Shown here: one piece after another, positions 1-13,531 of the stretch
How positions within the stretch are numbered: the first letter of the stretch is position 1
Layout: each line of letters starts with the position of its first letter
DNA from: a virus
DNA length: 13,531 nt
Strand: one strand, 5' to 3'
UHGV virus genome: UHGV-0241990
Made by a program: the position numbers and the translations under genes
The notes under the pieces: generated by a model
What the model saw: only the letters and a program-made list of their open reading frames with translations
Database searches by the model: none
What the model was told of the DNA's origin: nothing

Positions 1-829
1 CCACCATATCGCCTAACGCATGCGGCTGGAACTGTGGGACCAGATAAGCAGTATTCTCTGGCAGACTATCCATTTGCACCACACGCAGAGCTAAGCCCGG
101 AATGCGGAAGGTCGGGAAGCCCGGCAGAATATCCTCAGGGAACATCAGACCTTTGTCGGTAATATTCTGATTGCCGAACAACAGCACTTTACGGAGCAGT
201 TCATCAGTCTGAATTGCAGCAAAGAGCTCAGCACGGCAGAACAGGGTGAAACCACGCAGAGCGCGAACAACACCACGCTGTTTAACCTTGCTCAGTGCAA
301 CCAGGTCCTGCAGCTGTTTAAGGATATCTTGAGCTAGATCCACTTCTGAAGTGGTTTGCTGTGCGCCCAGCAGTTCGCACACATTCAGTTCTTTACCCTT
401 GGTAAGGATAATTTTGTTCTCAAAGAGAGCAAGCTGGCGTGCTTCTTCATGGGTCGCGCGTAGTCCTTCACCCAGTTGAATAACACGACGAGCGGTTACA
501 GACTCTAAATTCTCTTCGGAATCTTTGCCCGGAACACGGATACCTTGCCAGTCAGAAGGATAAATAGCACTTGATGCGGCAGTGAATGCCATATCACCCG
601 TGCCCGTTTCACGCTCATCTGCGGTAATGGTAGCCATCTGTTCACCGTAGCGCGGATACTGACCGAAAGCGGTTTGTTTCACCTGGCGAACTTTGTCATA
701 TTCAAATTTAAAGGTATTGCACAGGGCTGTAGTGTTGAAGATATCCATTGCTGAAATAATCTGGTTATCCAGCGGGATGTCTTTAATCAGACCACACAGA
801 TCGCGAACTTCAAATTCTTTCTTAGCCAT
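1..829 (-). CDS. putative major capsid protein (N-terminal ~276 codons; gene runs past window start)
   Basis: Minus-strand frame opens at ATG 829..827 and runs to position 1 with no stop (frame hand-checked over several segments). GGAGG Shine-Dalgarno at 840..836, 6 nt upstream. Begins MAKKEFEVRDL. Lies directly downstream of the decoration-like gene (lambda D-E type order). Capsid call is from context and protein character, not confirmed homology. Confidence 0.5.
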   Translation of the reverse strand, partial: MAKKEFEVRDLCGLIKDIPLDNQIISAMDIFNTTALCNTFKFEYDKVRQVKQTAFGQYPRYGEQMATITADERETGTGDMAFTAASSAIYPSDWQGIRVPGKDSEENLESVTARRVIQLGEGLRATHEEARQLALFENKIILTKGKELNVCELLGAQQTTSEVDLAQDILKQLQDLVALSKVKQRGVVRALRGFTLFCRAELFAAIQTDELLRKVLLFGNQNITDKGLMFPEDILPGFPTFRIPGLALRVVQMDSLPENTAYLVPQFQPHALGDMV

Positions 830-840
830 CTTCAACCTCC

Positions 841-1176
841 TTATTGTGCAACACGCAAATCGCCATTGCTGGCAGCAATAACAGCGGCTAAGCCTTCTTT
901 ATCCACGTAGGCCGGATTGATGTAGCAACCTTTGTTCGCAACAACGATAAAAGCGTCACCAACCTCAGCACGTTCTACAACCAGCAGCGGAGTTTTACCG
1001 GTGTGCGTTGCTTTAACGAATGTTTCAACCTCGCCTTCCTCAGTCACCACAACAACAGTGCCAGCCGGAATCTCAGCCTTAACTTTGTTTTTAATTTCAA
1101 CGTCGCGAATAGAAAATTGCTCATCTGCGGCGTATGAAATGATGTGTCCGCGTGTGCGGATAGTCATATCTCTCAT
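841..1176 (-). CDS. head decoration protein-like (lambda gpD / DUF2190-like), 111 aa
   Basis: ORF from track. AGGTGA SD just upstream of ATG at 1176; stop 841-843 abuts the SD of the next gene. Beta-rich core (PLLVVERAEVGDAFIVVANKGCYINPAYV) resembles the gpD-type decoration fold pattern (recalled, not searched). Confidence 0.55.
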   Translation of the reverse strand: MRDMTIRTRGHIISYAADEQFSIRDVEIKNKVKAEIPAGTVVVVTEEGEVETFVKATHTGKTPLLVVERAEVGDAFIVVANKGCYINPAYVDKEGLAAVIAASNGDLRVAQ

Positions 1177-1229
1177 TTGATCACCTGCGATTTAAATTAA
1201 CTCCCCTCAAAGAGTTCCGGTATAACCTC

Positions 1230-1620
1230 TCAAACCACGACAGGCTCGGGCCGAAAAGTTATGCCGGAAATCTAAAGGGAAATTGATACAAGGAGAGGGA
1301 GATAGCCCCGCACCGTAGCCAAGCGGGGGCTATTCCACATGGGGAAACCGACAACAGTCGGATGATAGTTCACAGTATGGGTTACGGTTACTAGAGAGCA
1401 CTATCACGAAAGGCACTCCCCCGGATCAGTTCAGGCTGCGGTCACATCAGCGGGGAAATACCTTTCGGGATAGCTACCCACACAGAAAACCCGCAAAAGA
1501 AAACTGTGTGGATAACTAGCCCAATAGGAGAATTAATCGACCACTCAACGATGATCAGGGTAGTGTTATTTATAAGGCGGCACCGCTACCTGGTCGCCTT
1601 TACTTTGGAGGAAAATACGG
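1230..1620. other. structured, ORF-free, locally GC-enriched segment (candidate leader or ncRNA)
   Basis: No ORF of 60 aa or more on either strand. Hairpin 1302-1333 (ATAGCCCC / GGGGGCTAT arms) and hairpin 1478-1511 (8-bp stem CCACACAG / CTGTGTGG). A 9/9 DnaA-box-like TGTGGATAA at 1507-1515. Confidence 0.25.
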
Positions 1621-1943
1621 CAAATCACTTTCACCATTGATTTACGGTATATGTATATTATATCAGTATTCTCTCAAATTGTCAACCCCCTTATTATATA
1701 AATTCTAATAATTAGCGTAGTAACGGTATTTTCAGACCTCTATCAATCCCATCAATACGTCATCTCATCGCATCTATCATAACTTTTTCATTCGTGATAG
1801 ATATCTTTTGATCAATATCAATGTTTTCCGGGGATTTACCCGGTTATAGTTCGAATCAAGGAAGGGTAGCATTGATAGAGACACCCAAAGGGGTGACTGA
1901 AAGTCACCTGGCATAGCCAGTGAAAGCACCCAACCGAGCAAAC

Positions 1944-1961
1944 AAATCAACTTCTCGCAAA
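1944..1961 (+). repeat. conserved 18-nt element AAATCAACTTCTCGCAAA, copy 1
   Basis: Identical to 2463-2480; ends exactly 11 nt before the ATG at 1973. Confidence 0.7.
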
Positions 1962-1972
1962 AGGTGATAGTT

Positions 1973-2095
1973 ATGGGTATCAAGAACAGTGCCAGCGCAT
2001 GGCAAAAGGCCAGGTTTCATCACCCACACATTGTTAAGGCAATTGAGGTGGTTGGAGTTTTAGCCCTGATGTTAGCTCTGTGTGTGGAGGTGTGA
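1973..2095 (+). CDS. small hydrophobic peptide, 40 aa (MGIKNSASAWQKARFHHPHIVKAIEVVGVLALMLALCVEV)
   Basis: Not in ORF track (below its apparent length cutoff). ATG 1973 with AAGGTGA SD 5 nt upstream; stop TGA 2093-2095. Basic N-terminus and predicted C-terminal TM helix. Preceded by the conserved 18-nt element. Confidence 0.4.
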   Translation: MGIKNSASAWQKARFHHPHIVKAIEVVGVLALMLALCVEV

Positions 2096-2173
2096 GATGG
2101 GCAAAGGAGGCAAAGTATTTTTAATAGGTCTGGCAGTCTTAGATTTTGTATTAATCATCATTGAGCGGAGTTT

Positions 2174-2434
2174 ATGACGGGAACTAAAGATATTAAGAGA
2201 CTGAGGGAAGAGCTGATAGCTGAAATTAAAGCTAAGGCAAAGCAAATGGAGATAGCCGCACAAATGGATGTAGCGGAACAGATGTACAAGATGGTTGAGG
2301 AGGGAACGCCACGACAGGTCATCGCTAAAACCTTCGGTGTGGGGATCGCCACCGTGCACAGAAGGCTAAAAGCCTATGCCGACTACCACAATATCGAAAG
2401 AAAGGAGGATGGGAGATTTAAGAAGAATAAATAG
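2174..2434 (+). CDS. small HTH DNA-binding protein, 86 aa
   Basis: ORF from track; GGAG SD before ATG 2174. Helical N-terminus followed by an HTH-like segment TPRQVIAKTFGVGIATVHRRLK (resolvase / sigma region 4-type pattern). Confidence 0.75.
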   Translation: MTGTKDIKRLREELIAEIKAKAKQMEIAAQMDVAEQMYKMVEEGTPRQVIAKTFGVGIATVHRRLKAYADYHNIERKEDGRFKKNK

Positions 2435-2462
2435 TGTGAACAGTCCACCAGGTTATTAACTT

Positions 2463-2480
2463 AAATCAACTTCTCGCAAA
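2463..2480 (+). repeat. conserved 18-nt element AAATCAACTTCTCGCAAA, copy 2
   Basis: Identical to 1944-1961; ends exactly 11 nt before the ATG at 2492; followed by GGGG SD-like bases. Confidence 0.7.
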
Positions 2481-2491
2481 GGGGTACCACT

Positions 2492-3202
2492 ATGTTTAAG
2501 GGAATTATTGTTACACTATTAGCTTGCATTGTATTTGGTCCATGGGTGTTAGTAATTGCTTTGCCTCTATTACTAGTGATGAGTGTAGGGAAAGATATTA
2601 AAAAGCTGCATGCACAATATAAAGAGCACCCTGGAGCAGTCATAACAAGTCTGGTTATAGTCGCGGGGCTTATTGGCTGGGCCTACTTCTCTCTTCCCAC
2701 AGGAAATACAGCTGCAAATGTGGAAGAGGTGAACTCACAGCATGAAGAAGTGGTTAACGTCTCCGATCTTACATGGGAGGACAGGGTAAAAGCATATAAA
2801 TATATTTATGGTGTGCTAGATTGCGATCTCTCTAAAGATATAGGATGCACAGATAAATACCAGATTCACGCCTGGCTGTGGAATCATGCAGAAAAAGGTG
2901 CTTGCAACCAGATTAAAGTGGCGGTTAACAGTGGGGCACCTACTGGGAAAAATAAAGATGTTCTGACGGTATGGTGCAAGGATGTAAAAGGCAATGATCG
3001 TTGGCTACAGATGCGCCACATGGACGGTGTAAGCATAGAAACTACACGAACGGCTCGATGGTATAACGGTGAACTCGTTCACGAAGCATGGCAGAATAAC
3101 GCCTGGATCACTGAGGGAACACTCCTGAATGTTGATATGGAAGCATTGAAGATGCTTAATGAGATGTACGGTGAAGCCGTAGAAACCTCTCCTATGAAAT
3201 AA
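2492..3202 (+). CDS. membrane-anchored protein, 236 aa (two N-terminal TM helices plus soluble Cys-containing domain)
   Basis: ORF from track. Hydrophobic stretches IIVTLLACIVFGPWVLVIALPLLLV and ITSLVIVAGLIGWAYF, then a ~170-aa hydrophilic domain with several Cys. Followed immediately by a strong terminator. Confidence 0.85.
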   Translation: MFKGIIVTLLACIVFGPWVLVIALPLLLVMSVGKDIKKLHAQYKEHPGAVITSLVIVAGLIGWAYFSLPTGNTAANVEEVNSQHEEVVNVSDLTWEDRVKAYKYIYGVLDCDLSKDIGCTDKYQIHAWLWNHAEKGACNQIKVAVNSGAPTGKNKDVLTVWCKDVKGNDRWLQMRHMDGVSIETTRTARWYNGELVHEAWQNNAWITEGTLLNVDMEALKMLNEMYGEAVETSPMK

Positions 3203-3218
3203 CCACACCAACCCACCA

Positions 3219-3245
3219 GGGGGCCATCACGGCCCCTTTTTTATT
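3219..3245 (+). terminator. rho-independent terminator
   Basis: GGGGCC (3220-3225) / GGCCCC (3231-3236) stem, ATCAC loop, then TTTTTTATTT; 17 nt after the stop of the 236-aa gene. Confidence 0.85.
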
Positions 3246-3248
3246 TAT

Positions 3249-3303
3249 CCCCTATTTAACCCCTATTTAATGGGTATTTAATGCCTATTTATTGATTTAA
3301 TGG
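3249..3303. repeat. five tandem 11-bp units with TATTTAA core
   Basis: cccctatttaa (3249), cccctatttaa (3260), tgggtatttaa (3271), tgcctatttat (3282), tgatttaatgg (3293). Period is one helical turn. Confidence 0.6.
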
Positions 3304-3783
3304 TTTTGGGCATTGTTGACAGTGTAAGAGAGAGGATGTAACCCTTTTTTGCAATACTAATAAAATCAATAGCTTAGCTCAATTGGCCTTTTCTCTATTT
3401 TTGTCAAATTTAACATACCCTCAAAAACTGCAAAATCTGGCTGCAAGATTATCTGCAGCTGGATTTCTTACACCTCAATTTGTAGTATCACCCTGACTAG
3501 TTTGTGCATAAAATGAACAGTTTTTAACATTTCCTATTCACCTGGTAACCACACAAAAAGCTAAAAACGAGGCACAGATAATCTTAGAGGCCTGTTTTCT
3601 TGTTATCACTCTGGGAACGTCGTAGAAGTGATTTTGATGAAAGATGACCTACCCTATTACACCCCCATTTTTTGTTATCACAATTGCATCCTGTGCGGTG
3701 TATGGCTGTGTGCTGAAAGCGGTCTTGGGTGTGGGTGTCAGAAATATCCATTAGCGGTATTAATACCCGTCAGATGTTCGTCT

Positions 3784-3820
3784 GAGGTGCCAGGCAGGCG
3801 CTCCCCCACCTCCCTTTTTT
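3784..3820 (+). terminator. orphan terminator-like hairpin plus T-run in non-coding DNA
   Basis: GAGGTG (3784-3789) pairs CACCTC (3807-3812) with GC-rich inner pairing, followed by CC TTTTTT (3815-3820). No annotated gene upstream on this strand. Confidence 0.4.
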
Positions 3821-4368
3821 CTTCTAACAATTCTCAAATATCACACCACTGCCGACCACGTTGCTATTATGTTAATTCTTAAGCTTTGCTGTATGTTGTG
3901 CACATTATTTATTCAGGTGGCTGTACGTAAATTCTGTGCCCACTGATCATGATTTTTAAATCAGATTTTGTAGTGCGCTTTATTAGTGTAGATAAGATCT
4001 ATTATGTTAAATGCAATTTTCCCAACCCTTCAAATCAATGACTTACATGTAAGCATGCACTAACACCCCACACAGCACATTAGACGTATAGATGGCTATA
4101 TCCCACATTTTTGATTGTTTTGTAGTCATTCCCCTGATCATTTAACCAGTATAGTTTGTTCTCTGTAGACCACAAAACCGGAATTTACATCTGATTAACA
4201 TAATCTGTTAGCATGATCACCATTACCCACACAACAATAACCCCATGCAAGCCTCTTCAGGCAATTTATCGGCGTGTTGGTGTGAACAGTCTTTCATGTT
4301 CTTTATGTATTCATTGTCCTGTGTGAGGGAAGGATGGACTGCCCCAGGGGCCATAGTTATGACACCCG

Positions 4369-4404
4369 GTCAACATAACTGTTGATAAAATCAACGGGTG
4401 TTGA
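4369..4404. promoter_or_regulatory. pair of palindromic operator-like sites TCAACA-N4-TGTTGA and ATCAAC-N4-GTTGAT
   Basis: 4369-4384 TCAACATAACTGTTGA and 4389-4404 ATCAACGGGTGTTGAT share half-site TCAAC / GTTGA; centres 20 bp apart. CCCCAGGGG palindrome at 4341-4349 just upstream. Confidence 0.45.
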
Positions 4405-4525
4405 TCTGCATATTTCCCACACATGAGAGAAAATCAAAGCAAAGAGAGAGGAGAGAGGTTTGCTAGTCAAAATAGGTCAATTGACGGCTAATACAGAGTA
4501 AAAAATCAGATGCAATCACTCCCCC

Positions 4526-4795
4526 ACCTGTTGGGATTTCCTACAACCCCTTTCAGTCATACTCAGGCACCACACCCCGGTAAATATTACCGCACTAACC
4601 TGTAAAGAATTTTCACACCTGTGTGTTTATACAGTCATACTCTCCTGTTTTGCAGTCATTGCACCCATGATACACAGCCCCTAACCTGTCAAAATATTTT
4701 ACTACCCCACCAATAATACGGCCCATACCTGTAAAATATTTTTACTACTACCTGTCAAAATCTTTTACTACTACCTGTAAAAATATTTGACACTA
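4526..4795. repeat. iteron array: ACCTGT-containing ~23-bp repeats with near-palindromic core GT(C)AAAATATTTTAC
   Basis: Well-conserved copies starting near 4598, 4684, 4727, 4750, 4773 (spacings 86, 43, 23, 23 bp). Degenerate ACCTGT/CCTGT copies at 4526, 4617, 4644. Inverted repeat CGGTAAATATTACCG at 4578-4592. Confidence 0.65.
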
Positions 4796-4825
4796 ATAGA
4801 TAAAGTAATAGACCACACAATAGAT

Positions 4826-4859
4826 CCCCCCCTAACCCCCCAGGGGGGAATGGGGAGGG
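4826..4859. repeat. homopolymer C/G tract palindrome (C7-TAA-C6-A-G6-AAT-G4-A-G3)
   Basis: Read directly: ccccccctaaccccccaggggggaatggggaggg. CCCCCC A GGGGGG centred at 4842. Shorter CCCCAGGGG relative at 4341-4349. Confidence 0.5.
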
Positions 4860-5377
4860 ATCAGAGAGTGGGGAAGGTTTTCTAAGGGAAAAGCTTAACC
4901 CACAAATGAAAGCCTAAAGAGCATTAGCGACTCTTTAGGCAATATGTGTGTGGGGGTGACAATGTATTCCATACATGACACGTCACCCAATTGTGTGTGG
5001 GAGTGCCTACGGCACCTTAGCCCATGGCTAAGCCCTTCGGGTCTGTGTGTGGTCCGGCGAATGCGTCAGCATGAGGCCCACATGTGGACCGCTGCCGAAA
5101 GCTTGCCAGCGCCGGAAGGAGGCAGCAAAGAGTCTCCCGCGCGGGTGCACGCACACATATATAAAGGATACACTCATAAATCGAAAATAAGCCCCCTAAA
5201 TGGCCTTCTGGCTGCATTAACTAGTGTGAGTAGTGCAATTGCATTACCTGACCTCTAAATCGCGTTAGAATCGATTTTAGAGCGCTTAAGGCAAAAAGTG
5301 CCCTCCCTTGTGGGCTTGCTTGTGTCTGCTGTGCAGGCTATGGCACCTATAGCACACCTAAATGATAATAATTCTCA

Positions 5378-5406
5378 TTGACAATTGGTTGACAATATGA
5401 TAAGAT
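5378..5406 (+). promoter_or_regulatory. sigma70-like promoter candidate P1 with duplicated TTGACAAT
   Basis: TTGACA 5378-5383, 17-bp spacer, TAAGAT 5401-5406 (4/6). A second TTGACAAT at 5389-5396, 11 bp downstream of the first. Confidence 0.4.
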
Positions 5407-5441
5407 TATAAATAGGGGGAGAAACAGATCCGGAGGTCAAT

Positions 5442-5591
5442 GTGGAAATTACTGATGCAATAGCGATCATCAACCTGGCTGTACTGTGGTGCGGTGTTGC
5501 CTACATAGCCGGAGTAACTGCAATCGACAATCTTGAAGAAAAAATGATAGATAAATACAAAAAGATTGTTGACAATTTGACGAATGTCTGA
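5442..5591 (+). CDS. small GTG-initiated ORF, 49 aa, predicted TM helix (VEITDAIAIINLAVLWCGVAYIAGVTAIDNLEEKMIDKYKKIVDNLTNV)
   Basis: GGAGG at 5432-5436, 5 nt before GTG 5442; stop TGA 5589-5591. Not in track (short, non-ATG start). Protein-like composition, unlike the antisense track ORF 5406..5606. Confidence 0.3.
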   Translation: MEITDAIAIINLAVLWCGVAYIAGVTAIDNLEEKMIDKYKKIVDNLTNV

Positions 5592-5597
5592 TAAAAT
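5569..5597 (+). promoter_or_regulatory. near-consensus sigma70 promoter P2 for the plus-strand operon
   Basis: TTGACA 5569-5574, exactly 17-bp spacer, TAAAAT 5592-5597; predicted start ~5604, giving a ~120-nt leader before ATG 5725. Confidence 0.6.
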
Positions 5598-5724
5598 ATA
5601 AAGCATAGGGTAATTCTCATCATAGTGAATTTCCTTTAGTAGACTGGCGGGGGCTTGTCTTAAGTTCCCGTTTCTTTTTAATCATATATCGCACAGGTTA
5701 GTGAGCTAACAGGAGGCTTATACT

Positions 5725-5940
5725 ATGGCTAAAACCGGACCGATCAGCCAGCTGGTAAACTGGACTACTGACGAAATCGTCGAGAACGTACTTAAGGGGA
5801 ACTTCCGCAAAACTTCCGTTTATGCATTCATTCGTAAACATAAAGGAGAATATCCACACATTGAAGAAGCAATTTTAAAACTAAATTGCATTCGCCTTGA
5901 GCGGGAACTGGCTAAATACACCAATAACATTAATAAATAA
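5725..5940 (+). CDS. hypothetical small protein, 71 aa
   Basis: ORF from track; AGGAGG SD 5711-5716, 8 nt before ATG 5725; first gene downstream of P2. Confidence 0.7.
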   Translation: MAKTGPISQLVNWTTDEIVENVLKGNFRKTSVYAFIRKHKGEYPHIEEAILKLNCIRLERELAKYTNNINK

Positions 5941-5953
5941 TTATGGGGGAATT

Positions 5954-6820
5954 ATGGCAAGTAATTACGGGGAAAATTTTACTCCCCTTTTTAAACGTTT
6001 CATCAAATACATTTTTAAAAATCCGATTGCAAAAACTACAACCAATAAAGAAAGATTTCACTTAAACTTGTTGGAAATGACAATTTACGGTGAGATGGCA
6101 AGTTTTAATGCTGCAGGTTGTGAAATATTTATCTCTGAACAGAGATTAGCAGACGATTATGATGTTTCAAGACCGACAGTTATTAACTCGATTAAATCTC
6201 TAGAAAATGCCGGGCTTATTTCAATAGTTAAAAGTAAAGGCAAATCTAATCATTACAAACTGCTAATTACCCCTGATCAGCTTGGCAAGATGTGTGATGA
6301 GCAGGGTATTAAAACCTCCGACAGTGTGGGATCTAGTAAAGAGGCCCCCGATAATCAACAGGAAGCCCCAAAACAACCCACACAGCAAGCTAAAAAGGCC
6401 GAGGTGGTGCAATTGCCTACCCAACCTAAGAACGAGCGCAGAGAGCGCTTTAGAGACGCTGGCAAACGTGAGAAAGATGAGCACGGTTATCCGATTCTGA
6501 CAAGTGATGAGATGAACGCCAAATACAAAGGGATTCAGGCAACATTTAAGGATCGGAAGAGCATTAAACTCTCTGAATTGCGAGATGCATTTTACGGGCC
6601 GGAGGTGATGGATAAAATTAAAGGCACCGTTGAGGGTAGAATCTGGAAAGAAGATGATTATTGGCATTTAACAGAACAGGCCCTTAAGGTGGCTCAACAT
6701 GTAGCTAAAAGAGGTAAAACAATTATCATCGATTATATTAGTCATGGCTATGATGCCCCGAAAGAAAGATTGTGGAACAACTGCAAGCTTGTAAAAGGCG
6801 AATTAACCATTACAAAATAA
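5954..6820 (+). CDS. winged-HTH DNA-binding protein, candidate replication initiator or iteron-binding regulator, 288 aa
   Basis: Track ORF 5897..6820; start moved to in-frame ATG 5954 (GGGGGA upstream, avoids 44-nt overlap with previous gene). HTH segment ISEQRLADDYDVSRPTVINSIKSLENAGLISIVK, a Q/P/K/E-rich linker, then a distinct C-terminal domain. Lies ~1.2 kb downstream of the iteron array. Confidence 0.8.
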   Translation: MASNYGENFTPLFKRFIKYIFKNPIAKTTTNKERFHLNLLEMTIYGEMASFNAAGCEIFISEQRLADDYDVSRPTVINSIKSLENAGLISIVKSKGKSNHYKLLITPDQLGKMCDEQGIKTSDSVGSSKEAPDNQQEAPKQPTQQAKKAEVVQLPTQPKNERRERFRDAGKREKDEHGYPILTSDEMNAKYKGIQATFKDRKSIKLSELRDAFYGPEVMDKIKGTVEGRIWKEDDYWHLTEQALKVAQHVAKRGKTIIIDYISHGYDAPKERLWNNCKLVKGELTITK

Positions 6821-6859
6821 ACATTCTTATTTTTTACAGTATTCTAAAGGAAATTTAAA

Positions 6860-7006
6860 ATGTATGGCGATCTTGATTATTACCTGGAAAAGGAAAAATA
6901 TTTTGAAGATGAACTATCACAACATTTTTCATATTGGGAAGAATATTGTGGTTGGTTAGCTGAAGATCCAGCAGATGAAGAAAATGATTCTGACATCCCT
7001 TATTAA
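6860..7006 (+). CDS. tiny acidic protein, 48 aa (MYGDLDYYLEKEKYFEDELSQHFSYWEEYCGWLAEDPADEENDSDIPY)
   Basis: Not in track (short). AAGGA SD 8 nt before ATG 6860; stop TAA 7004-7006. Fills the otherwise empty gap between flanking genes. Strongly acidic with aromatic residues. Confidence 0.45.
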   Translation: MYGDLDYYLEKEKYFEDELSQHFSYWEEYCGWLAEDPADEENDSDIPY

Positions 7007-7104
7007 TTAATATCCCCTGTTATCCCCAAACAAACTAAATAAACAAACTAAGCACTAGAACTAGATTGATTGCCCTGATCTTTTAAACGTTCGGAGAATT
7101 AATC

Positions 7105-7593
7105 ATGTTCAAATCTGATCTTTCTGATTCCCAATTTGAAAAACTGGTAGCACTGCAGAAATATCTCCCCAGTGATGATCAACCAACACGACAGGCTAAA
7201 CACTTATTAGTCGAGGGCTTTACCCCTGAATTCGTGGCGGAATATACAGGCGTTAAACTTGAGAAAGTCCAAAAACTATATAATGAGTCCTGGAATCCAC
7301 GGTGTCGAGTTCCCCTCAGTGTCTACAACGAAATAGATAGAGATAGAAATGTCTTCGAAGATCGCCGCCGCAAATCTCTTTTAATGTGGAATTGTGGGAT
7401 GAATATTGAAGAGATAGCAAAAGAATTAAAAGTAACCTGCTTTCATATCTGGGGCTTGTTGAGTGAAATCCTGCCACGTAAGGAGCTTAATCAACGTTTG
7501 CCTAAGCCCGGTAGTCGTGCTTATCGCGAATTTATATTCATCTACCGCCGCCATAGAAATAAAGTCCAGAAAGCAATGGCCCAGAAAGCCTAA
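7105..7593 (+). CDS. putative DNA-binding protein with two sigma region 4-like HTH segments, 162 aa
   Basis: ORF from track; GGAG SD 8 nt before ATG 7105. HTH-like segments FTPEFVAEYTGVKLEKVQKL and MNIEEIAKELKVTCFHIWGLLSEIL; basic C-terminus. Confidence 0.8.
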   Translation: MFKSDLSDSQFEKLVALQKYLPSDDQPTRQAKHLLVEGFTPEFVAEYTGVKLEKVQKLYNESWNPRCRVPLSVYNEIDRDRNVFEDRRRKSLLMWNCGMNIEEIAKELKVTCFHIWGLLSEILPRKELNQRLPKPGSRAYREFIFIYRRHRNKVQKAMAQKA

Positions 7594-7666
7594 GTTTTAT
7601 CTCTTCGATTTATTTATTTTCGACTCACTTTAACCCCTTCCGGGGCTCTAATTTAAGGAATTCCAA

Positions 7667-8110
7667 ATGTCTCAAATCGCTAAATTATTATCCCAGGTAA
7701 TCAAAGCTTTCGACGCTGAAGATTCAAAAGTTCGCCAGGATCTTTTAGATGGCAAGTTTACCAACACCCTGGCATTTACCCGTGACAAAGAGCACTTCTT
7801 AAAACACAGACACCACGCTTTTGCTGAATGCAAGTCCGCTAATGGTGATGTTTTCTATGTCGATTTGGTGGTTATGGCATGTAGGCTGTGGATGATTCAG
7901 GACCTTATGCGCCAACACGGTGATGATCCTCTTATCAGCATGTGGAACAGCGCCCAGGATGGCTTTGTGATTGCTGCCTTATCCAAATCAATGATTGAGG
8001 CAGAAGGGGCAAGCCTTCAGAACATGGCAGATCTCTTTGAAATAAGCGTAGGAATGATGCAGACCATGCTCCAAGCTGTCAAACCTCTCAAACTGGTTAA
8101 TCTTGATTAA
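7667..8110 (+). CDS. hypothetical protein, 147 aa
   Basis: ORF from track; AAGGA SD 7 nt before ATG 7667. No recognisable motif. Confidence 0.8.
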   Translation: MSQIAKLLSQVIKAFDAEDSKVRQDLLDGKFTNTLAFTRDKEHFLKHRHHAFAECKSANGDVFYVDLVVMACRLWMIQDLMRQHGDDPLISMWNSAQDGFVIAALSKSMIEAEGASLQNMADLFEISVGMMQTMLQAVKPLKLVNLD

Positions 8111-8170
8111 GCTATTGATAAATAAGCACTCCCCATTTTTTGGGGGGTGCATCAATGAGAGGATATGCCT

Positions 8171-8554
8171 ATGAATATTGAAGAAATGATAGTTGAATTC
8201 GAAGAGGGTGATTTCCTGGAAGAAGGGGAGTTTAGTTACTCCCATTTTAAACAGGCGTTATTTAGCAGCGATGATAAACCACACGTTAGTGATCTTAACG
8301 ACGATGATTTATGTCGTTGGGTATGCACCCGCTTAAATGAAGATGGAAAGTATACAGGCCAAAACTTTCCAAATCTCTATTTCAAAGCACAAACATTTGA
8401 GGAAGGGCAAAGAGTGAAAAACCTGGTCGATAAAATGCTGTCAGCCGGATATTTGCATAAAGAATTATTAAATCCTAAAGCTGAAAGCAAGCGCCATTAT
8501 ATTTTTGTGTGGACTATTGGCGATAAGTGTCCACTAAGACGCAAAGGCAAATGA
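8171..8554 (+). CDS. hypothetical acidic protein, 127 aa (129 aa if started at 8165)
   Basis: Track ORF 8165..8554. GAGAGGA at 8157-8163 is only 1 nt from ATG 8165 but 7 nt from ATG 8171, so 8171 preferred. Stop TGA 8552-8554 lies 1 nt before the next ATG. Confidence 0.7.
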   Translation: MNIEEMIVEFEEGDFLEEGEFSYSHFKQALFSSDDKPHVSDLNDDDLCRWVCTRLNEDGKYTGQNFPNLYFKAQTFEEGQRVKNLVDKMLSAGYLHKELLNPKAESKRHYIFVWTIGDKCPLRRKGK

Positions 8555-8555
8555 T

Positions 8556-8792
8556 ATGAATATCTACGAAAAGATTTATCAAAAACTGGTTAAGGACTCC
8601 GAAGACACGCCCGAAGGGGTGACAATAGGTCACCTGCCAGAGGCAGCGAAAGAGGGGTCCACCATTATTAAAAGTAGCTCCCACACAGAAGGCCTCTCAA
8701 TCGAAGAGCTGGCGGAGAAATATAATATTGATAAAGAGGCCCTGAAAAGGGCTATTTCATTATCAAAATCTTTAAGACAGGGCGAGGTATAA
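8556..8792 (+). CDS. hypothetical protein, 78 aa
   Basis: ORF from track; tightly packed between neighbours (stop 8790-8792, next ATG 8794), consistent with translational coupling. Confidence 0.7.
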   Translation: MNIYEKIYQKLVKDSEDTPEGVTIGHLPEAAKEGSTIIKSSSHTEGLSIEELAEKYNIDKEALKRAISLSKSLRQGEV

Positions 8793-8793
8793 A

Positions 8794-10935
8794 ATGGCAA
8801 TGAAGGAAGTAGCCAGACTAACAAACGTTATTTACTGGGACTCTGATAAATCCTCCTGGCGAAAAGAAGTTAAACGGCTTGAGGATTATAAAAAATCCTG
8901 GAAGAAAGCTACCGACGATATAGCTAAAGCTGATTTTAAATCTAATCAGGCTGTGCTCAGAACACAAAGAACACGCGCTAAGGTGGAAGAGCAGATAGCC
9001 AGAGCTCAGAGGAAACAACAGGAAGCACAGAAGAAACAACGTGCTCAGGCTGTCAGCCGTCTGACCGGGGGCAACAATGCCGAACTTAACTCTATGCGCA
9101 AGTTCTACCAACAACAAGCCAGAGAAGCCGCCAGACAACAAAAACTGTTAGATCGTAGTGTTGGAGATGTTCAGCACAGAAAAGCACGTGTAGGGGCCAA
9201 CAGTGCACGAATCAGCAGCATGTTTGATGGATCCCTGGTTGCTCAGTTCCAAAGCAGAATCCAGAGAGTTAATGCTGATTATGCTAAAGGGGCTATTAAC
9301 CTGCAGACCTATAATCAGAAAATGGCCCGACTCAGAGCTGAAATGAAGATGGCCTCTAGAGATGCCACCACCTTTCAAAGCAAGCTAGATAAACTGGCAG
9401 CAGGTGCGAGCAAGGTGCATAACAATATCGGCAAGCTTAACAGTGCTTTAGGCAAGATAGCCATTGGCCTGACCGCTGCAGGATGGGGTATTCAGAGAGC
9501 TGTTAGTGGTGCTATGAGCGCTCAATCTGACCATAACTCAGCCTATTATGGTTTGCTTGCTCAGAACAAGGATGATAAAGCCAAGACTGACCAGCAGATG
9601 GCTTTTATCGAGAACACAGCCAACACCTACGGGATGGATCAGCGTGAGATGGAGGGTGGCTATATGCGTTTTGCTGCCGCTACTCCCACCATGAAGGAAT
9701 CTGATAAGCAGGCTCTTTTTGAGGCTATGGCGATTAAAGGCCGCTCAGTGGGTGCTACTGGCGAGCAACAGAACAGGGCGCTTGTTGCGGTCCAACAAAT
9801 GGCTTCAAAAGGAAGAGTAGCTGCGGAAGAGCTGCGTGGCCAGCTGTCAGAAGCCTTTGCAGGCTCACAACAGGATTTTCAACAGGCCGCTATTGATGCC
9901 GGAATCATCAAGAGTGCCCAGGAATTCGATAAAGCCATGGCAGATGGCAAAATCACCCTGGACAAGCTTCTTCCCTCTCTAGTGAAAATCTGGGGTGCTG
10001 CAAAAGAAACTGACGCTTTTGCTAAATCTATGCAACAGCCTGAAGTGGCACTGCAGAGAATGAGCAACCAGTTTTTTAAACTAAAGCAATCCTTTATGGG
10101 TGTTGTGGATCCTGCGGATGGCGTCATTACCCTGTCAGAATCCCTTATTTATATCTTTGAAGATTTATCCTCAATTTTCAGTAGCTCAGGTGAAGATGCC
10201 AAATCTCTCGGAGTTATGTTAGGCGAGGCAATGCATGAAATTTATTTTTGGGTCAACTGGGCTTGGTGGTGGACTAAGAAGATCGCCAAAGGCATTGGTG
10301 AGACGTTAGGCTGGACCGCACAGGATGCAGGCGAGAAGATTGGCCAGGTTGTGACCGCCCTGTTAGGCCTGAAGGTTGCAACAAGCATTGCTGGCATGGT
10401 TGGCGGCCTTATTTCCATGCTGTGGAAACTTAAAGCGGCGCTTAGTGCTTTAGTCGGTGTTGGTGATATCAGCACTGGAGGCACAGCAGGCAAAGGCAGA
10501 CCAGGTAGAGGCGGCTTTATCGGGAAAGCAGGCAGACTTGGAGGAAGATTTGCAGGTCCGGCAGGGATTGTTTTGACAGGATTTGACATTGCAAATAGCT
10601 TAGATTCCTACTGGCAGAATCCTGATAATCAGCGGCAGGAAGGAGCTAAACATCCTGAATGGTTAACCAGTATGGTTAATAGTGCTTCTAGCTTCCTTGG
10701 CCTTGATTATCGTCTGGACGCAGGACGCTACATTACCAGACCAACACCAACGGGTGGTATTGCTATTCAGAATGGAGGCTATCAGCCGACTCAAATCAGT
10801 GTAGTTCCGCAGGGTGAGATCTCCGGCAAGTGGGAGATAACCATTGATGAGGGGGGAATTGCCAGGGTGATCCAGAAGGAAGTCAGCGATCAGCTGGATT
10901 GGAAAGCCACACAGGAAGCTAATCAGCTTTTCTAA
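8794..10935 (+). CDS. tape-measure-like protein, 713 aa
   Basis: ORF from track. Long charged Q/K/R/E-rich helical N-terminus; central segment GEQQNRALVAVQQMASKGRVAAEELRGQLSEAFAG resembling the conserved tape-measure domain (recalled). Hydrophobic segments (VVTALLGLKVATSIAGMVGGLISMLW) and a Gly-rich stretch (GGTAGKGRPGRGGFIGKAGRLGGRFAG). Confidence 0.8.
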   Translation: MAMKEVARLTNVIYWDSDKSSWRKEVKRLEDYKKSWKKATDDIAKADFKSNQAVLRTQRTRAKVEEQIARAQRKQQEAQKKQRAQAVSRLTGGNNAELNSMRKFYQQQAREAARQQKLLDRSVGDVQHRKARVGANSARISSMFDGSLVAQFQSRIQRVNADYAKGAINLQTYNQKMARLRAEMKMASRDATTFQSKLDKLAAGASKVHNNIGKLNSALGKIAIGLTAAGWGIQRAVSGAMSAQSDHNSAYYGLLAQNKDDKAKTDQQMAFIENTANTYGMDQREMEGGYMRFAAATPTMKESDKQALFEAMAIKGRSVGATGEQQNRALVAVQQMASKGRVAAEELRGQLSEAFAGSQQDFQQAAIDAGIIKSAQEFDKAMADGKITLDKLLPSLVKIWGAAKETDAFAKSMQQPEVALQRMSNQFFKLKQSFMGVVDPADGVITLSESLIYIFEDLSSIFSSSGEDAKSLGVMLGEAMHEIYFWVNWAWWWTKKIAKGIGETLGWTAQDAGEKIGQVVTALLGLKVATSIAGMVGGLISMLWKLKAALSALVGVGDISTGGTAGKGRPGRGGFIGKAGRLGGRFAGPAGIVLTGFDIANSLDSYWQNPDNQRQEGAKHPEWLTSMVNSASSFLGLDYRLDAGRYITRPTPTGGIAIQNGGYQPTQISVVPQGEISGKWEITIDEGGIARVIQKEVSDQLDWKATQEANQLF

Positions 10936-10980
10936 CTGGTTGATAATAAAAGCCCCTCGGGATTTGTCATCCTTTGGGGC

Positions 10981-10992
10981 TCAACTTCTCGC
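10981..10992 (+). repeat. third copy of the core TCAACTTCTCGC
   Basis: Exact 12-nt match to the core of the 18-nt element at 1944 and 2463; lies just after a hairpin (10953-10981) downstream of the tape-measure-like gene. No start codon at the 11-nt distance. Confidence 0.5.
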
Positions 10993-11389
10993 CTGGCAAG
11001 TGTGATCATCTGCAGAGAGAAAGTCAACTCTCTTTCTGTTCACGTTTGATCATTCATACCGTTTGTTTTATATTCATCAGTGGAAACAGATCCCAGAGGT
11101 TAACGCGACCTCTAAGAGAAAATAAGCGTCTATGATCTGGAGTATCTTGTAGAGCACTGGGCTTGATGCGGCCTCACCCTAACCAAGGTGATAAACAGGC
11201 AAACGTTGGTGGTTCTGCTCTCTTACCCGGCAATAAGTGATAAGCCAAAACTAAGAGATGCCCACACGGTTTCACCGCACCGGAATATAAGCAGGTACCT
11301 GATAAAGCTGATCTACATGAAAACCTGAAAACCCCTAAATGATGCTAGTGTTTCTCCTTACCACCAACACGGCATCAAAAAGAGTTCTA

Positions 11390-11418
11390 TTGTCTGAATT
11401 CAGGATTTTGGCTATAAT
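11390..11418 (+). promoter_or_regulatory. sigma70-like promoter for the 49-aa ORF
   Basis: TTGTCT 11390-11395, 17-bp spacer, perfect TATAAT 11413-11418. Confidence 0.55.
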
Positions 11419-11452
11419 GTAGGCGTAGCAGGTCATAAGAAGGGGTGACACT

Positions 11453-11602
11453 ATGAAGAATGCCAATGCCATTAAGCGAAATAACCGCAAGATTCACGCT
11501 CGCAAGTTTCTCAAGACTGAAGAAGGCCGGAAATGGTTAGAAGAGAAGCAGAAGGAACGGCAGGAGATAAAGCTTGTGCGGGAATTATCCCAGTTTATCT
11601 AA
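11453..11602 (+). CDS. small basic protein, 49 aa (MKNANAIKRNNRKIHARKFLKTEEGRKWLEEKQKERQEIKLVRELSQFI)
   Basis: Not in track (short). AAGGGGTGA SD before ATG 11453; stop TAA 11600-11602. Own promoter and terminator. Confidence 0.6.
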   Translation: MKNANAIKRNNRKIHARKFLKTEEGRKWLEEKQKERQEIKLVRELSQFI

Positions 11603-11612
11603 TCTCAGAGAG

Positions 11613-11639
11613 AGGGGCTATCAGGCCCCTTTCTTGTCT
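11613..11639 (+). terminator. rho-independent terminator
   Basis: AGGGGC (11613-11618) / GCCCCT (11625-11630) stem, 6-nt loop, then TTCTTGTCT. Overlaps the stop codon of the convergent minus-strand gene. Confidence 0.6.
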
Positions 11640-12079
11640 ATGTCTACCCAGTATTTGATTGCACCGATCAAATCATCATAGTGGCGCATTGCATCATTGA
11701 AGCCTTTATAGCTTGCCCATTGTGGGGAAACCTTGTTATTGCTGAATTGCCCACTAATCAGGATAGTCTCCAAAATGTCGGCGTATCGCTTGCCAATTCG
11801 CTTTCTGACGGCCTCAGAGCTCCCACCCTTTACGATTGCATTAATCAGGGCTTTTGTGTGTCTCAGGCTCTCATAGAGCATTGCAGCGTGGGCAGACTCC
11901 ATAAATGAGCGCTTAGGCAAATCACCCCACCCCTCAGAGTGGATAGCCGCCAGTGTGGCGTAATTCAGGCCGCTATAGTGTTTCCCGTCATCCCAGCCAA
12001 CCGCTACACCTTCCATCTGTGAGAGCTCTTTATGCAGCTTATCCATCATGCGCTTGTCTATGGTGCACCGGACTTTCAT
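11621..12079 (-). CDS. putative virion morphogenesis protein, 152 aa
   Basis: ORF from track; start ATG overlaps the stop of the upstream gene (ATGA at 12076-12079). Segment VGWDDGKHYSGLNYATLAAIHSEGWGDLPKRSF is reminiscent of small head-tail or tail-completion proteins (weak, recalled). Confidence 0.75.
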   Translation of the reverse strand: MKVRCTIDKRMMDKLHKELSQMEGVAVGWDDGKHYSGLNYATLAAIHSEGWGDLPKRSFMESAHAAMLYESLRHTKALINAIVKGGSSEAVRKRIGKRYADILETILISGQFSNNKVSPQWASYKGFNDAMRHYDDLIGAIKYWVDIDKKGA

Positions 12080-12843
12080 TTTGTAGCATCCTTGGCAAAT
12101 TTGGCTTGCCTTTGCTGATCATAAATGTCTTTTGTGCTCATAGCCCCATCATTTTCATCGAGCAAAGTTTGTAAATTTTTAGGCTTAGCCGATGGGGTGT
12201 TGGTTGAGTTCCCGACGTTGCTATTCTTCTCAGCACTGTTAACAGCACCCTTTTGCTGTGTTTTATTCACCTTCTTACTGTTAGTGAAAACTCCGGCATT
12301 TTCGACCATCTTCACCTTGAAGGTGCGGAATTCTTCAAAAGTGCAATCAATAGTGATGCAGTCGCCAGAGGAAGAGCTACGCTTAACTTCACATTTCGTC
12401 ATGATGAAGTTCTCAAGAAGTCCGGCATCTTCACTAACCAGGCTAACCAGCTGGCGCTTGTCTCTCATTTCCATAAGTGCCTGAACAGCGGCAGCAGGGC
12501 GCATAGATTCACGGGGATTATCTGGATCAGTGTTCCGGTCGATGTAGTTCTCTTTCCGGATGATATGAGGGGAAGAGGTAACAATACCCGTAAAGCTGAC
12601 AGATTTATCTTTAATGACGGCATGGTCTGACATGGTGGTGCCATCCTCGACCGCATAGCTCGATTTCTCAACAGGGAACGAATAGCTGACATCAGAGATA
12701 GAGTCAAAGAAGATAGCCACATTATCGGTATAGTTGAAGCCATCCATTATATTTTTGTTTTGTGAATATCCCCCACACATAACAGTGAATGCAGGAGATC
12801 TCGACTCAGCTTGTTTTGCAGCTGTTAGAGCATCATTAGCCAT
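12076..12843 (-). CDS. hypothetical protein, likely structural, 255 aa (258 aa if started at 12852)
   Basis: Track ORF 12076..12852. GAGG SD is 1 nt from ATG 12852 but 10 nt from ATG 12843, so 12843 preferred. Beta-rich N-terminal part, low-complexity polar C-terminus. Confidence 0.75.
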   Translation of the reverse strand: MANDALTAAKQAESRSPAFTVMCGGYSQNKNIMDGFNYTDNVAIFFDSISDVSYSFPVEKSSYAVEDGTTMSDHAVIKDKSVSFTGIVTSSPHIIRKENYIDRNTDPDNPRESMRPAAAVQALMEMRDKRQLVSLVSEDAGLLENFIMTKCEVKRSSSSGDCITIDCTFEEFRTFKVKMVENAGVFTNSKKVNKTQQKGAVNSAEKNSNVGNSTNTPSAKPKNLQTLLDENDGAMSTKDIYDQQRQAKFAKDATK

Positions 12844-12948
12844 ATTGAACATGCCTCAAAAATGAATCTTTTCGTTGCCCTGCTTAAAATCTGCAGAAAA
12901 TACAGGGCAGTTATTCGTTAGAATCGCTTATAGCTCTTCCCGAGAGCG

Positions 12949-13209
12949 TTATTTTGCAAAACGATTATGGGCATTCAGGGCTTTTTTGCGGTCCTGTGCC
13001 TGTTTGCGTGCAATAAAATGTTCGAAAGTCTCGGCCCAGGTGCATTTATTATATTCACGGTATTTATGCATAGCCTGGCGGCTAACGTCATAGCAGGCGG
13101 CAAATGTGGAGATACGCAGGAATTCCGGCAGATCCTCGTCATCGATATGGATAATATCAAAAGGCACGTCGTCACGGTCGCCGTATAAAACAATTTTCAT
13201 AAAAGACAC
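12949..13209 (-). CDS. hypothetical small protein, 86 aa, possible HTH (AACYDVSRQAMHKY)
   Basis: ORF from track; GAGGTG SD 5 nt upstream of ATG 13209. Acidic N-terminus. Sits just downstream (minus sense) of a terminator. Confidence 0.7.
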   Translation of the reverse strand: MSFMKIVLYGDRDDVPFDIIHIDDEDLPEFLRISTFAACYDVSRQAMHKYREYNKCTWAETFEHFIARKQAQDRKKALNAHNRFAK

Positions 13210-13234
13210 CTCAAAAACTTAAGACGGGGATAAT

Positions 13235-13295
13235 AAAAAAGGGAAGAGGGAAAGACCTATCCCCGATCTCTCACCTCTTCCCTTTGCTTTTATTT
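13235..13295. terminator. bidirectional intrinsic terminator
   Basis: GGGAAGAGG (13241-13249) pairs CCTCTTCCC (13274-13282). Flanked by an A-run (13235-13240, read as T-run on the minus strand) and TTTGCTTTTATTT on the plus strand. Confidence 0.6.
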
Positions 13296-13319
13296 GGCCT
13301 TCGAAGAAGGACCTTATTT

Positions 13320-13531
13320 AGCCTTGGCTTTTGCCAGAGCAGCGGCGGCGGAGTTACTAACACTCACTTTAACCACAACCTCAGGCATCATGTTCATGAA
13401 AGCATAAGAGGATTCAATGAAGATTTCTCGTTTACCTCTGGACTCTTCCATATACATGAAAGCTTCACGTGCAGCGCCGTTTGCAAGCTTCAGGTTGCGA
13501 GCGCAAGGGCCGAAAAATTGAGTATAAACGC
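13320..13531 (-). CDS. C-terminal 70 codons of an upstream protein (ends ...VSNSAAAALAKAKAK)
   Basis: Minus-strand open frame from window edge to stop TAA at 13322-13320, hand-translated. Followed by the bidirectional terminator. Confidence 0.55.

Follow-up and report, generated by a model that had tools for sequence, protein, structure and literature searches.

The DNA analysed in the present study is the virus genome UHGV-0241990, a stretch of 13,531 nucleotides (nt) referred to below as the window. The window (positions 1-13531) represents a whole circular replicon of 13.5 kb, because the gene encoding a 348-amino-acid major capsid protein spans both of its ends. We focused on positions 5340-5724, which serve as the control region for the rightward operon of this E. 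coli plasmid (ORF71 - rep - ORF48 - further genes, up to that of the tape measure protein; ORF, open reading frame). Located here are two tandem promoters (P1 and P2), the small gene ORF49 and a leader that contains an intrinsic terminator (Table 1). Part of the leader, designated the seed, is complementary to the translation-initiation region of ORF48, and the leader RNA probably acts as an antisense riboregulator encoded on the same strand as its target. The block 5343-5680 was the best-conserved non-structural part of the element in a comparison of 28 distinct relatives.

Promoters, ORF49 and the terminated leader

Two tandem promoters had been proposed for this region by the first-pass annotation, which was made from the sequence alone; both are present, close to the sigma-70 consensus and conserved in relatives. 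P1 and P2 were the second and fifth best sigma-70 matches in the element, the best being P3, which is also conserved in 7/7 complete elements. P2 was identified by the promoter scan as TTGACA-17-TAAAAT (11/12) with a TG-extended -10. The -35 of P1 and the sequence TGATAAGAT are invariant in 27 family sequences, and P2 is invariant in 28 distinct sequences, including a 38-kb contig (L009). Thus, the hexamers, the spacing (within 16-18 bp) and the conservation of the predicted P1 and P2 are those of sigma-70 promoters. Searches with the exact P1 and P2 motifs gave no match in IMG/VR or in species-representative genomes; P2 is carried by three metagenome contigs of the same family.

P1 would drive ORF49. 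As noted previously, P2 overlaps the 3' end of this GTG-initiated frame (5442-5591), and the TGA stop codon of ORF49 provides the "TG" of the extended -10. No synonymous variants were detected in ORF49 codons 32-45, which cover the -35 of P2 and the A-rich stretch ahead of it, versus 21 in codons 2-31. These codons appear to be under a DNA-level constraint beyond coding, as would be the case if an UP-like element belonged to the promoter.

The repeated octamer TTGACAAT was confirmed at 5378, 5389 and 5569 on the plus strand, in exact copies, and was found once on the minus strand (1685-1678). This gives four occurrences versus an expectation of 0.75, a number reached in none of 200 shuffles. 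A related site reported at 3313 (TTGTTGACA) is real, but its full reading is TTGACAGT and it has no usable -10. The octamer is indeed duplicated at P1, although the copy at 5389 is not strictly conserved (relatives have TTGTCAAT, TTGACAGT or TTGACAAG instead); no correctly spaced -10 was found for this copy, which is possibly an operator or a decoy -35. The pattern TTGACA-N14/15-TGnTAnnnT occurs at exactly three sites, P1, P2 and P3, in each of the 7 complete elements. Since these are the only sites of that pattern in the element, the recurring octamer seems to represent mainly the -35 of related promoters. P3 is a paralogue of P2, with which it forms an inverted repeat (I1, 46 nt, 74%).

The small transmembrane ORF of the first-pass annotation is a real gene, as judged from comparative evidence, i.e. 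a switch of start codon and a third-position bias across relatives. In 27 distinct family sequences its start alternates between GTG and ATG at the same position behind GGAGG, and no indels were detected. Variable columns are distributed 10/7/23 over codon positions 1/2/3, and in codons 2-31 there are 21 synonymous and 10 amino-acid variants. ORF49 is annotated by PGAP in every relative, and its product has a mean Kyte-Doolittle hydropathy of 2.18 over 19 residues (7-25). No match was found in PHROGs, NCBIfam or PADLOC, and homologs were detected only within the element family. A candidate antisense promoter over ORF49 was rejected: it scores only 9/12, is the complement of the -35 region of P2 and is followed by no terminator.

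The transcription start of P2 was placed near 5604 from the position of the -10, which gives a leader of ~121 nt before the ATG at 5725, in agreement with the ~120 nt estimated previously. The leader up to the end of the U-run folds with -21.6 kcal/mol (z -3.1). The pairs of its 5' stem-loop (SL1) show some one-sided changes and one two-sided change among relatives; the loop and the 3' arm belong to the seed. The G+C-rich hairpin followed by a T-run, noted earlier, was recovered by the terminator scan and in all folds. Across the 12 different type-A leaders compared, 10 conserved pairs of its helix are retained through G-U to A-U and U-A to U-G changes; moreover, matched 1-nt deletions in both arms were found in L005 and L028, and a replaced apex in L008 and L014. 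The type-B leader (L012-L027, L034, L044-46) is sequence-unrelated to type A and carries, in the same place, a hairpin of its own (GCUGGG-UUACAU-CCCAGC) with a U-run. A conserved G+C-rich hairpin with a U-run, as present here, is typical of an intrinsic terminator.

No promoter-like site was found by the promoter scan between the terminator and the ATG at 5725, and therefore expression of ORF71 and rep depends on read-through. The idea of attenuation or regulated read-through thus stands as far as a terminator precedes a rep operon that needs read-through, but nothing points to conditional attenuation: neither an exclusive antiterminator fold nor a leader-peptide arrangement was found. The minimum free energy, centroid and consensus folds contained no competing helix, and the terminator was always kept; the stop codon of ORF49 lies 55 nt ahead of the hairpin. 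Plain attenuation is only part of the story. Rfam searches gave no match at the gathering score in the whole window and, at E<=10 in 5300-5800, only two sub-threshold chance matches (L20 leader and mmgR). The promoter scan detected no convincing minus-strand promoter in the leader.

Several further observations concern the surroundings of the promoters. The homology of L009 (Logan contig ERR13318355_18094) starts ~55 nt upstream of the -35 of P2; therefore, P2 and the leader travel jointly as a module. The identical module of L009 (P2 - leader - terminator - ORF69, positions 5850-6700) is preceded by an unrelated 82-amino-acid ORF whose last 26 residues are equal to those of ORF49, and there are genes in the vicinity for a truncated Rep-like protein and a tail-fibre-like protein. 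L009 may represent a larger related phage or helper, a recombinant or a chimeric assembly. Some relatives, L002 (~3190-3280), L004, L005 and L006, carry an insertion of ~90 bp, ~130 bp upstream of P1, which has no counterpart in the window (between 5315 and 5343) and holds another promoter-like site (TTGACAAT-18-TATAAG) followed by a hairpin. The best match to GATAATGATAATCATTATC anywhere in the window is the Fur-box-like element next to P1 (15/19 at 5364-5382; a second match, 14/19 at 5358, overlaps it). The score of 15 was reached by 9/200 shuffles and is marginal versus chance; the sequence TGATAAT(A/G)AT at this site is conserved in relatives, and ORF49 might be iron-regulated. PhoB-box and LexA-box readings of the tandem TTGACA were dismissed, as the spacing, judged by eye, is wrong. 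P3 is followed by a conserved leader of ~480 nt (to 1177) with a stem-loop, the motif UUUUCCUCC and a hairpin AAGGCG...CGCCUU that lacks a U-run; no terminator was detected in this leader.

Table 1. Features of the control region and of other parts of the window
Feature	Position	Strand	Description
P3	1657-1685	-	TTGACAAT-TTGAGAGAATACTGA-TATAAT, 12/12, TGn-extended -10; directed towards the capsid operon
Iterons	4583-4794	+	About five 22-nt copies, ACCTGTCAAAATATTTTACTAC-like; repeat families D1, D2, D11
Fur-box-like element	5358-5382		A/T-rich; abuts/overlaps the -35 of P1; weak lead
P1	5378-5406	+	-35 TTGACA 5378-5383, spacer of 17, TG-extended -10 TAAGAT 5401-5406; 10/12
Second TTGACAAT copy	5389-5396	+	In the P1 spacer, 11 bp past the first copy; TTGWCA kept in relatives
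ORF49	5432-5591	+	Shine-Dalgarno sequence (SD) GGAGG 5432-5436; coding sequence 5442-5591, GTG start; 49-amino-acid single-pass membrane protein MEITDAIAIINLAVLWCGVAYIAGVTAIDNLEEKMIDKYKKIVDNLTNV
P2	5535-5597	+	A-rich UP-like element 5535-5568, -35 TTGACA 5569-5574, TG 5589-5590, -10 TAAAAT 5592-5597
Leader (predicted small RNA of ~76 nt)	5604-5680	+	Extends from the predicted start of transcription through the U-run
SL1, 5' stem-loop	5607-5636	+	RNAalifold consensus of 12 type-A leaders; 8 pairs
Antisense seed	5621-5646	+	CATAGTGAATTTCCTTTAGTAGACTG; SL1 loop, 3' arm and linker; complements the ORF48 translation-initiation region
Intrinsic terminator	5646-5679	+	Hairpin 5646-5672 (12 pairs), then TCTTTTT
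Post-terminator leader and ORF71	5681-5940	+	SD AGGAGG; ORF71 5725-5940, first gene of the rep operon; annotated by PGAP in relatives
Rep	5954-6820	+	Winged-helix replication initiator with lambda-O/DnaD-like N-terminal domain
Seed target	6837-6862	+	CAGTATTCTAAAGGAAATTTAAAATG; holds the ORF48 SD AAGGA 6847-6851 and ATG 6860-6862
ORF48	6860-7006	+	Very acidic 48-amino-acid protein ending in ...ENDSDIPY; conserved, first ORF after rep
Untranslated spacer	7007-7104	+	C-rich, G-poor (A37 C22 G11 T28)

Complementarity between the leader and the ORF48 translation start

The earlier account of the leader was incomplete, since it missed the strongest signal of the region, the co-varying seed. Ungapped scores were computed for the reverse complement of the leader along the remainder of each element. 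Across 13 kb, the top complement in the window and in L001, L036 and L038 was the SD/AUG of the ORF that follows rep (ORF48 in the window), and the same top complement was obtained for L002, L004, L007 and L035 over the 2-3.4 kb searched downstream of the leader. Every element with such a post-rep ORF had its top match at the translation start of this ORF. RNAduplex scans with the full 76-nt leader were dropped as uninformative, because large interior loops gave values of ~-30 to -43 kcal/mol at many sites. Within the window, seed and target were also recovered by the repeat search as an inverted repeat (I4, 26 nt, 81%), and the duplex of the window pair (type A1) has an energy of -23.3 kcal/mol.

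Pairing between seed and target co-varies in at least six leader/target variants (Table 2), one of which is the unrelated type-B leader. Both the SD and the AUG are covered in the printed duplexes of A1-A4 and type B. When leaders were shuffled, the observed score was attained in 2, 0, 0, 0 and 5 of 150 trials. In a 6x6 matrix of all seeds against all targets, the cognate duplexes (-23.3 to -26.9 kcal/mol) were the best in all rows and columns. A position-by-position comparison revealed at least seven positions that are altered on both sides with the pairing retained. The G:T wobbles are conserved as well, and therefore RNA-RNA pairing is favoured over a shared DNA site. The other translation-initiation regions of the window pair far more weakly with the seed. 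Taken together, the pairing of the leader RNA with ORF48 is, on comparative sequence grounds, likely to be functional.

Table 2. Seed and target variants found in the element family
Type	Elements	Seed	Target	Match
A1	Window	AATTTCCTTTAGTAGACTG	CAGTATTCTAAAGGAAATT	Imperfect
A2	L008	AATTTCCTTTAATGAACT	AGTTCATTAAAGGAAATT	18/18
A3	L033	GGATTTCCTTAATTAACTG	CAGTTAATTAAGGAAAAC	16 consecutive within a longer match
A4	L047 (group L039-41, L047)	AATTTCCTTAAACAAAAAT	ATTTTTGTTTAAGGAAATT	19/19 in L047
A5	L042 (group L042-43)	TTCCTTAAACAAAAAAT	ATTTTTTGTTTAAGGAA	17/17
B	L034, L044-46	TTAGTGTGCTCATAAAAACTTCTCA	TGAGATTTTATTATGAGCATATTAA	Imperfect; on the start of a different 62-amino-acid ORF

Pairing of the seed with the ORF71 start, also considered (-19 to -25 kcal/mol in the window, -9 to -17 kcal/mol in relatives), does not co-vary and was set aside as generic anti-SD pairing. 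A search of the P3 leader for an analogous seed and target gave nothing over background.

ORF48 is probably a replication accessory protein, as suggested by the acidic tails described below; PHROGs, NCBIfam, PADLOC and PDB suggested no function for it. Different acidic ORFs occupy the post-rep position in the type-B elements and in L033 (ending in DSCIPY or DEDY), and in L005 (2187-3098) a similar acidic tail, NDSAIPY, is fused to the C-terminus of Rep. These tails recall the acidic C-terminal tip of SSB (DDDIPF), and the post-rep ORFs, all small and very acidic, may be SSB-tail mimics or replication adaptors.

Possible mechanism, alternative explanations and known counterparts

The features described above can be combined into the following mechanism. 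P1 would give the transcript of the 49-amino-acid membrane-protein gene, and P2, placed in the last ORF49 codons, would give a leader that folds into the 5' stem-loop and the intrinsic terminator. Most transcripts from both promoters would end at the terminator, yielding an abundant P2 RNA of ~76 nt, while the minority passing it would allow ORF71 and Rep to be made. The leader segment 5621-5646 would then pair with the SD and AUG of ORF48 (6837-6862) and block translation; the short RNA could act in this way in trans, or the read-through transcript could do so in cis. Because the inhibitor would be produced from a constitutive promoter on the plasmid itself, it could exert a dosage-dependent feedback (copy-number control or incompatibility) on a replication accessory protein. 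Loss of ORF48 translation may, in addition, keep the distal genes, up to that of the tape measure protein, silent by polarity while rep stays on; polarity is possible since a C-rich, G-poor spacer, a possible Rho entry site, follows ORF48. We consider this mechanism of a same-strand antisense riboregulator, taken in full, reasonably likely.

Several points weigh against it. The lineage of L005 and L037 (probably also L028) has no separate post-rep ORF, the acidic tail being fused to Rep, and the seed of L005/L037 has no convincing target (its best complements are of 11 nt and lie elsewhere); therefore, the pairing is not universal. The duplex of the window is the least perfect one (21/26, with an internal 3-nt mismatch loop) and is, taken alone, marginal versus chance (2/150 shuffled leaders), and the seed is partly buried within SL1. 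The family sequences are closely related, so that the TTCC/GGAA core of A1-A5 is shared by descent and only type B is fully independent. Efficient pairing in cis would silence ORF48 on every read-through transcript, and some mechanism of relief would be needed. Finally, the transcription start, the short RNA and the efficiency of termination are all predicted.

Among other explanations, a structure acting in cis only is unlikely, although it survives best. The pairing would then close a 1.2-kb loop in the read-through mRNA, setting a low level of ORF48 translation or guiding processing, and the short RNA would be a by-product. Seed and target do lie on one strand and in one operon, and covariation cannot tell cis from trans. 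However, genes for small RNAs are normally laid out in this way, with a consensus extended -10 promoter and a good terminator 45-75 nt further on; the terminator is retained even where the whole leader has been replaced, and the multiple specificity types resemble trans-acting incompatibility or immunity determinants.

Somewhat less probable still is a plain terminator or constitutive attenuator, whose hairpin would end the ORF49 mRNA and damp P2, so that little Rep is made; the complementarity would come from anti-SD/SD pairing plus chance. The hairpin is conserved and positioned as expected in this case, the pairing core UUCC:GGAA is indeed anti-SD/SD, and the seed pairs moderately with other SD regions; the modest significance of the window duplex and the lack of a target in the L005 lineage, mentioned above, also fit. 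What this explanation does not account for are the two-sided changes (at least seven) that keep the pairing beyond the SD core, the perfect matches of 17-19 nt in A2, A4 and A5, the complement of the unrelated type-B leader at the equivalent functional position, and the leading place of cognate duplexes in every row and column of the cross-matrix.

We assign about the same low probability to an antitermination switch of the lambdoid type (PR'-tR'/Q or N-nut), encoded by a helper or by the element. P2 and P3 would then be constitutive, and their transcripts would stop or stall in the leader until a processive antiterminator, produced upon infection by a helper phage, allows RNA polymerase to enter the rep/tail and capsid operons. 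A strong promoter, a nearby terminator and a long operon form the PR' layout, and P2 and P3 are paralogous consensus promoters directed towards two long operons, both with a leader consisting of a stem-loop and a second hairpin. Helper dependence is also probable, because structural genes are present and no terminase or portal was detected. On the other hand, no Q-, N- or RfaH-like protein was detected among the element ORFs scanned (PHROGs, 18 ORFs; Pfam, 10; NCBIfam, 7), although such a factor may be encoded by a helper. The P3 leader hairpin lacks a U-run, the P3 leader revealed no terminator, and no helper was found (the tape measure protein is 26% identical to that of rV5-like phages and the capsid protein has no phage match). 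Such a switch would leave the seed/target covariation unexplained, but could coexist with the antisense riboregulator.

Highly improbable, finally, is the reading of ORF49 as a hok-like type I toxin in a small-RNA-controlled toxin-antitoxin (post-segregational killing) cassette: the 49-amino-acid product with its N-terminal transmembrane helix, the strong conservation, the plasmid location and the adjacent small-RNA-like unit would suit it, but it was rejected because the hydrophobic ORF is not accompanied by an antisense RNA gene (the sole minus-strand site is the 9/12 match without a terminator), and, besides, the P2 RNA is same-strand and not complementary to the ORF49 start (duplex -12 kcal/mol) and no match was found in PADLOC, Pfam, NCBIfam or PHROGs.

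Same-strand antisense RNAs have been of central importance for understanding the choice of phage-plasmids and satellites between quiet maintenance and virus-like development. To our knowledge, few such regulators are known: c4 of P1/P7, CI of P4, CA of N15, and IsrK. The first three are, like the leader RNA described here, small leader-encoded RNAs that share strand and operon with their target, and their hosts are phage-plasmids or satellites, as is probably the case here. In the immI operon (c4-icd-ant), the target of c4 and the ribosome-binding site of icd, a small ORF located downstream, overlap; c4 silences ant in P1 by polarity, and its sequence variants give different specificities (P1/P7 heteroimmunity). 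The arrangement of seed (5621-5646) and target (6837-6862) is the same in that a same-strand RNA lies upstream of a target overlapping the ribosome-binding site. The mechanism of P4 CI has been summarised (PMC4825925). There is no homology to these RNAs in sequence or structure, and the Rfam C4 family model gave no match. Whereas c4, CI and CA are fragments processed by RNase P, the RNA predicted here is apparently a primary transcript, bounded by a consensus promoter and an intrinsic terminator of its own. The target differs as well: c4 acts on an antirepressor operon, whereas in the window it is a replication-linked acidic ORF, 1.2 kb away and past rep.

In the case of IsrK of Salmonella Gifsy-1, one promoter gives both a short terminated RNA and a read-through mRNA (PMC4825925), and the translation of a small downstream ORF is controlled through pairing, in trans, between the short form and the long one (PMC4825925). 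The predicted dual-isoform architecture and the complementarity are both present in the sequence of the window. IsrK activates translation by opening a structure, whereas repression is expected here, because the duplex covers the SD and the AUG. The output is also different (an antiterminator toxin versus a replication/late operon), and there is no homology.

MicL and DapZ are small RNAs of 3' untranslated regions transcribed from ORF-internal promoters ("type I"), and they act on unlinked chromosomal mRNAs. The predicted transcripts of the window have the same layout, with P2 lying within or just after codons 43-49 of ORF49 and a single terminator (5646-5679) shared with the mRNA. Unlike in MicL and DapZ, the target is in the same operon and the terminator must be leaky, since it is immediately followed by the rep operon, which is essential. 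CopA of R1 (target tap-repA) and RNA I of ColE2 are constitutive, dosage-dependent RNAs that prevent the start of translation of a small replication-linked ORF. Specificity variants of copy-number RNAs behave as incompatibility types, to which the seed variants described here can be likened. CopA and RNA I are countertranscripts of the opposite strand, whereas seed and target lie on the same strand here, with the seed 1.2 kb upstream and the target after rep rather than before it.

The best-supported interpretation is a non-homologous variant of the same-strand antisense riboregulators, located in the replication control region of a capsid-encoding plasmid family. More tentatively, the leader RNA and the ORF48 start could form a programmable switch that also sets incompatibility or immunity: the short RNA, abundant in the plasmid state, would block ORF48 translation, Rho-dependent polarity would silence the morphogenetic genes while one and the same transcript still yields Rep, and the seed/target variants would define mutually compatible element types. 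The matched seed/target pairs, at least six in number, represent a natural set of compensatory mutants, which makes the mechanism directly testable by reporter fusions. The leader switch would also provide a regulatory handle on a fairly common, apparently uncharacterised element of E. coli.

The element, its relatives and other features

The leftward operon comprises genes for a 111-amino-acid ORF, the capsid protein, an 86-amino-acid ORF, a baseplate-like protein and a tail-completion protein, and the rightward operon those for ORF71, the winged-helix Rep, ORF48, four small ORFs and a 713-amino-acid tape measure protein. In addition, there are genes for an HTH_7 protein and a variable membrane protein, and a stretch of ~2.2 kb without ORFs. 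Rep matches phrog_270, phrog_186 and phrog_678 (E 4e-12 to 3e-7) and the Pfam families HTH_36 and HTH_11. For ORF71 no match was obtained in Pfam, PHROG, NCBIfam, PADLOC or PDB, and its relatives are confined to the family. Profile scans detected neither a terminase nor a portal protein among the gene products of the element, and no tRNA or tmRNA gene was found in the window. The element looks like an undescribed plasmid-borne phage satellite or a mini phage-plasmid, since it has capsid, tape-measure, tail-completion and baseplate-like genes of its own but no terminase or portal.

Near relatives of the window are circular E. coli plasmids of 13.2-13.7 kb, found in 7 of 5,426 complete genomes and in no chromosome (carrier strains include RM10740, E275a and VTB97448v), and public assemblies contain considerably more than 100 contigs of 13-14 kb that belong to this family. 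Members of the family were seen only as 13-14-kb plasmids or contigs of E. coli and Shigella. A search of 5.8 billion proteins revealed no relatives of ORF49, ORF71 or the capsid protein outside the family; for the capsid protein it gave nothing below 82% identity, and there was no tblastn match in 50,697 phage records. In the search for a helper, the tape measure protein reached only ~26% identity to rV5-like phages. Neither the whole window (near mode) nor the control region (distant mode) had a relevant counterpart in searches for similar DNA in phages, and a 56-nt A/T-rich match to Lactococcus phage bIL311 was dismissed as not meaningful. We found no account of the plasmid family in the searchable literature, where CP043822 appears in one paper as a table entry.

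The iterons, spaced by 23 or 43 nt and lying roughly 600-800 bp 5' of P1, probably represent the replication origin. Just past them, on the minus strand, are two terminator-like hairpins (4824-4851 and 4912-4940). Upstream of the iterons, a region of 1.3 kb without ORFs (3212-4545) is 87-96% conserved among relatives, with substitutions that show no 3-nt periodicity, and its core (3662-4261) is nearly invariant and has no indels. A clear conserved RNA fold was not detected in 3212-4545, save for a z of -4.6 at 4200-4399 on the minus strand, and a search of 3150-5350 gave no meaningful Rfam match at E<=1; the region could function as a site for packaging or partition, or encode a non-coding RNA. 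Five phased repeats of ~11 bp (CCCCTATTTAA / TGGGTATTTAA / TGCCTATTTAT ...) are located at 3247-3305, directly past the terminator of the gene encoding a 236-amino-acid protein, and could form a protein-binding array or bent DNA.

Variability within the element is highest at the membrane protein gene (2492-3202), located after that of the HTH_7 protein: versions of 173, 176, 195 and 236 amino acids occur in relatives. The protein has no match in PADLOC, Pfam or PHROG, and the locus may be a hotspot for accessory or cargo genes. We also identified a 50-nt direct repeat (78%), one copy of which (1877-1926) is non-coding and lies upstream of P3, while the other (8603-8652) is placed inside a gene for a 78-amino-acid protein (8556-8792). 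Finally, the "plasmid" NZ_CP043822.1 (39,610 bp) contains the query region three times and has a size of ~3 x 13.2 kb; this record probably represents the same element in trimeric form or assembled as a concatemer.

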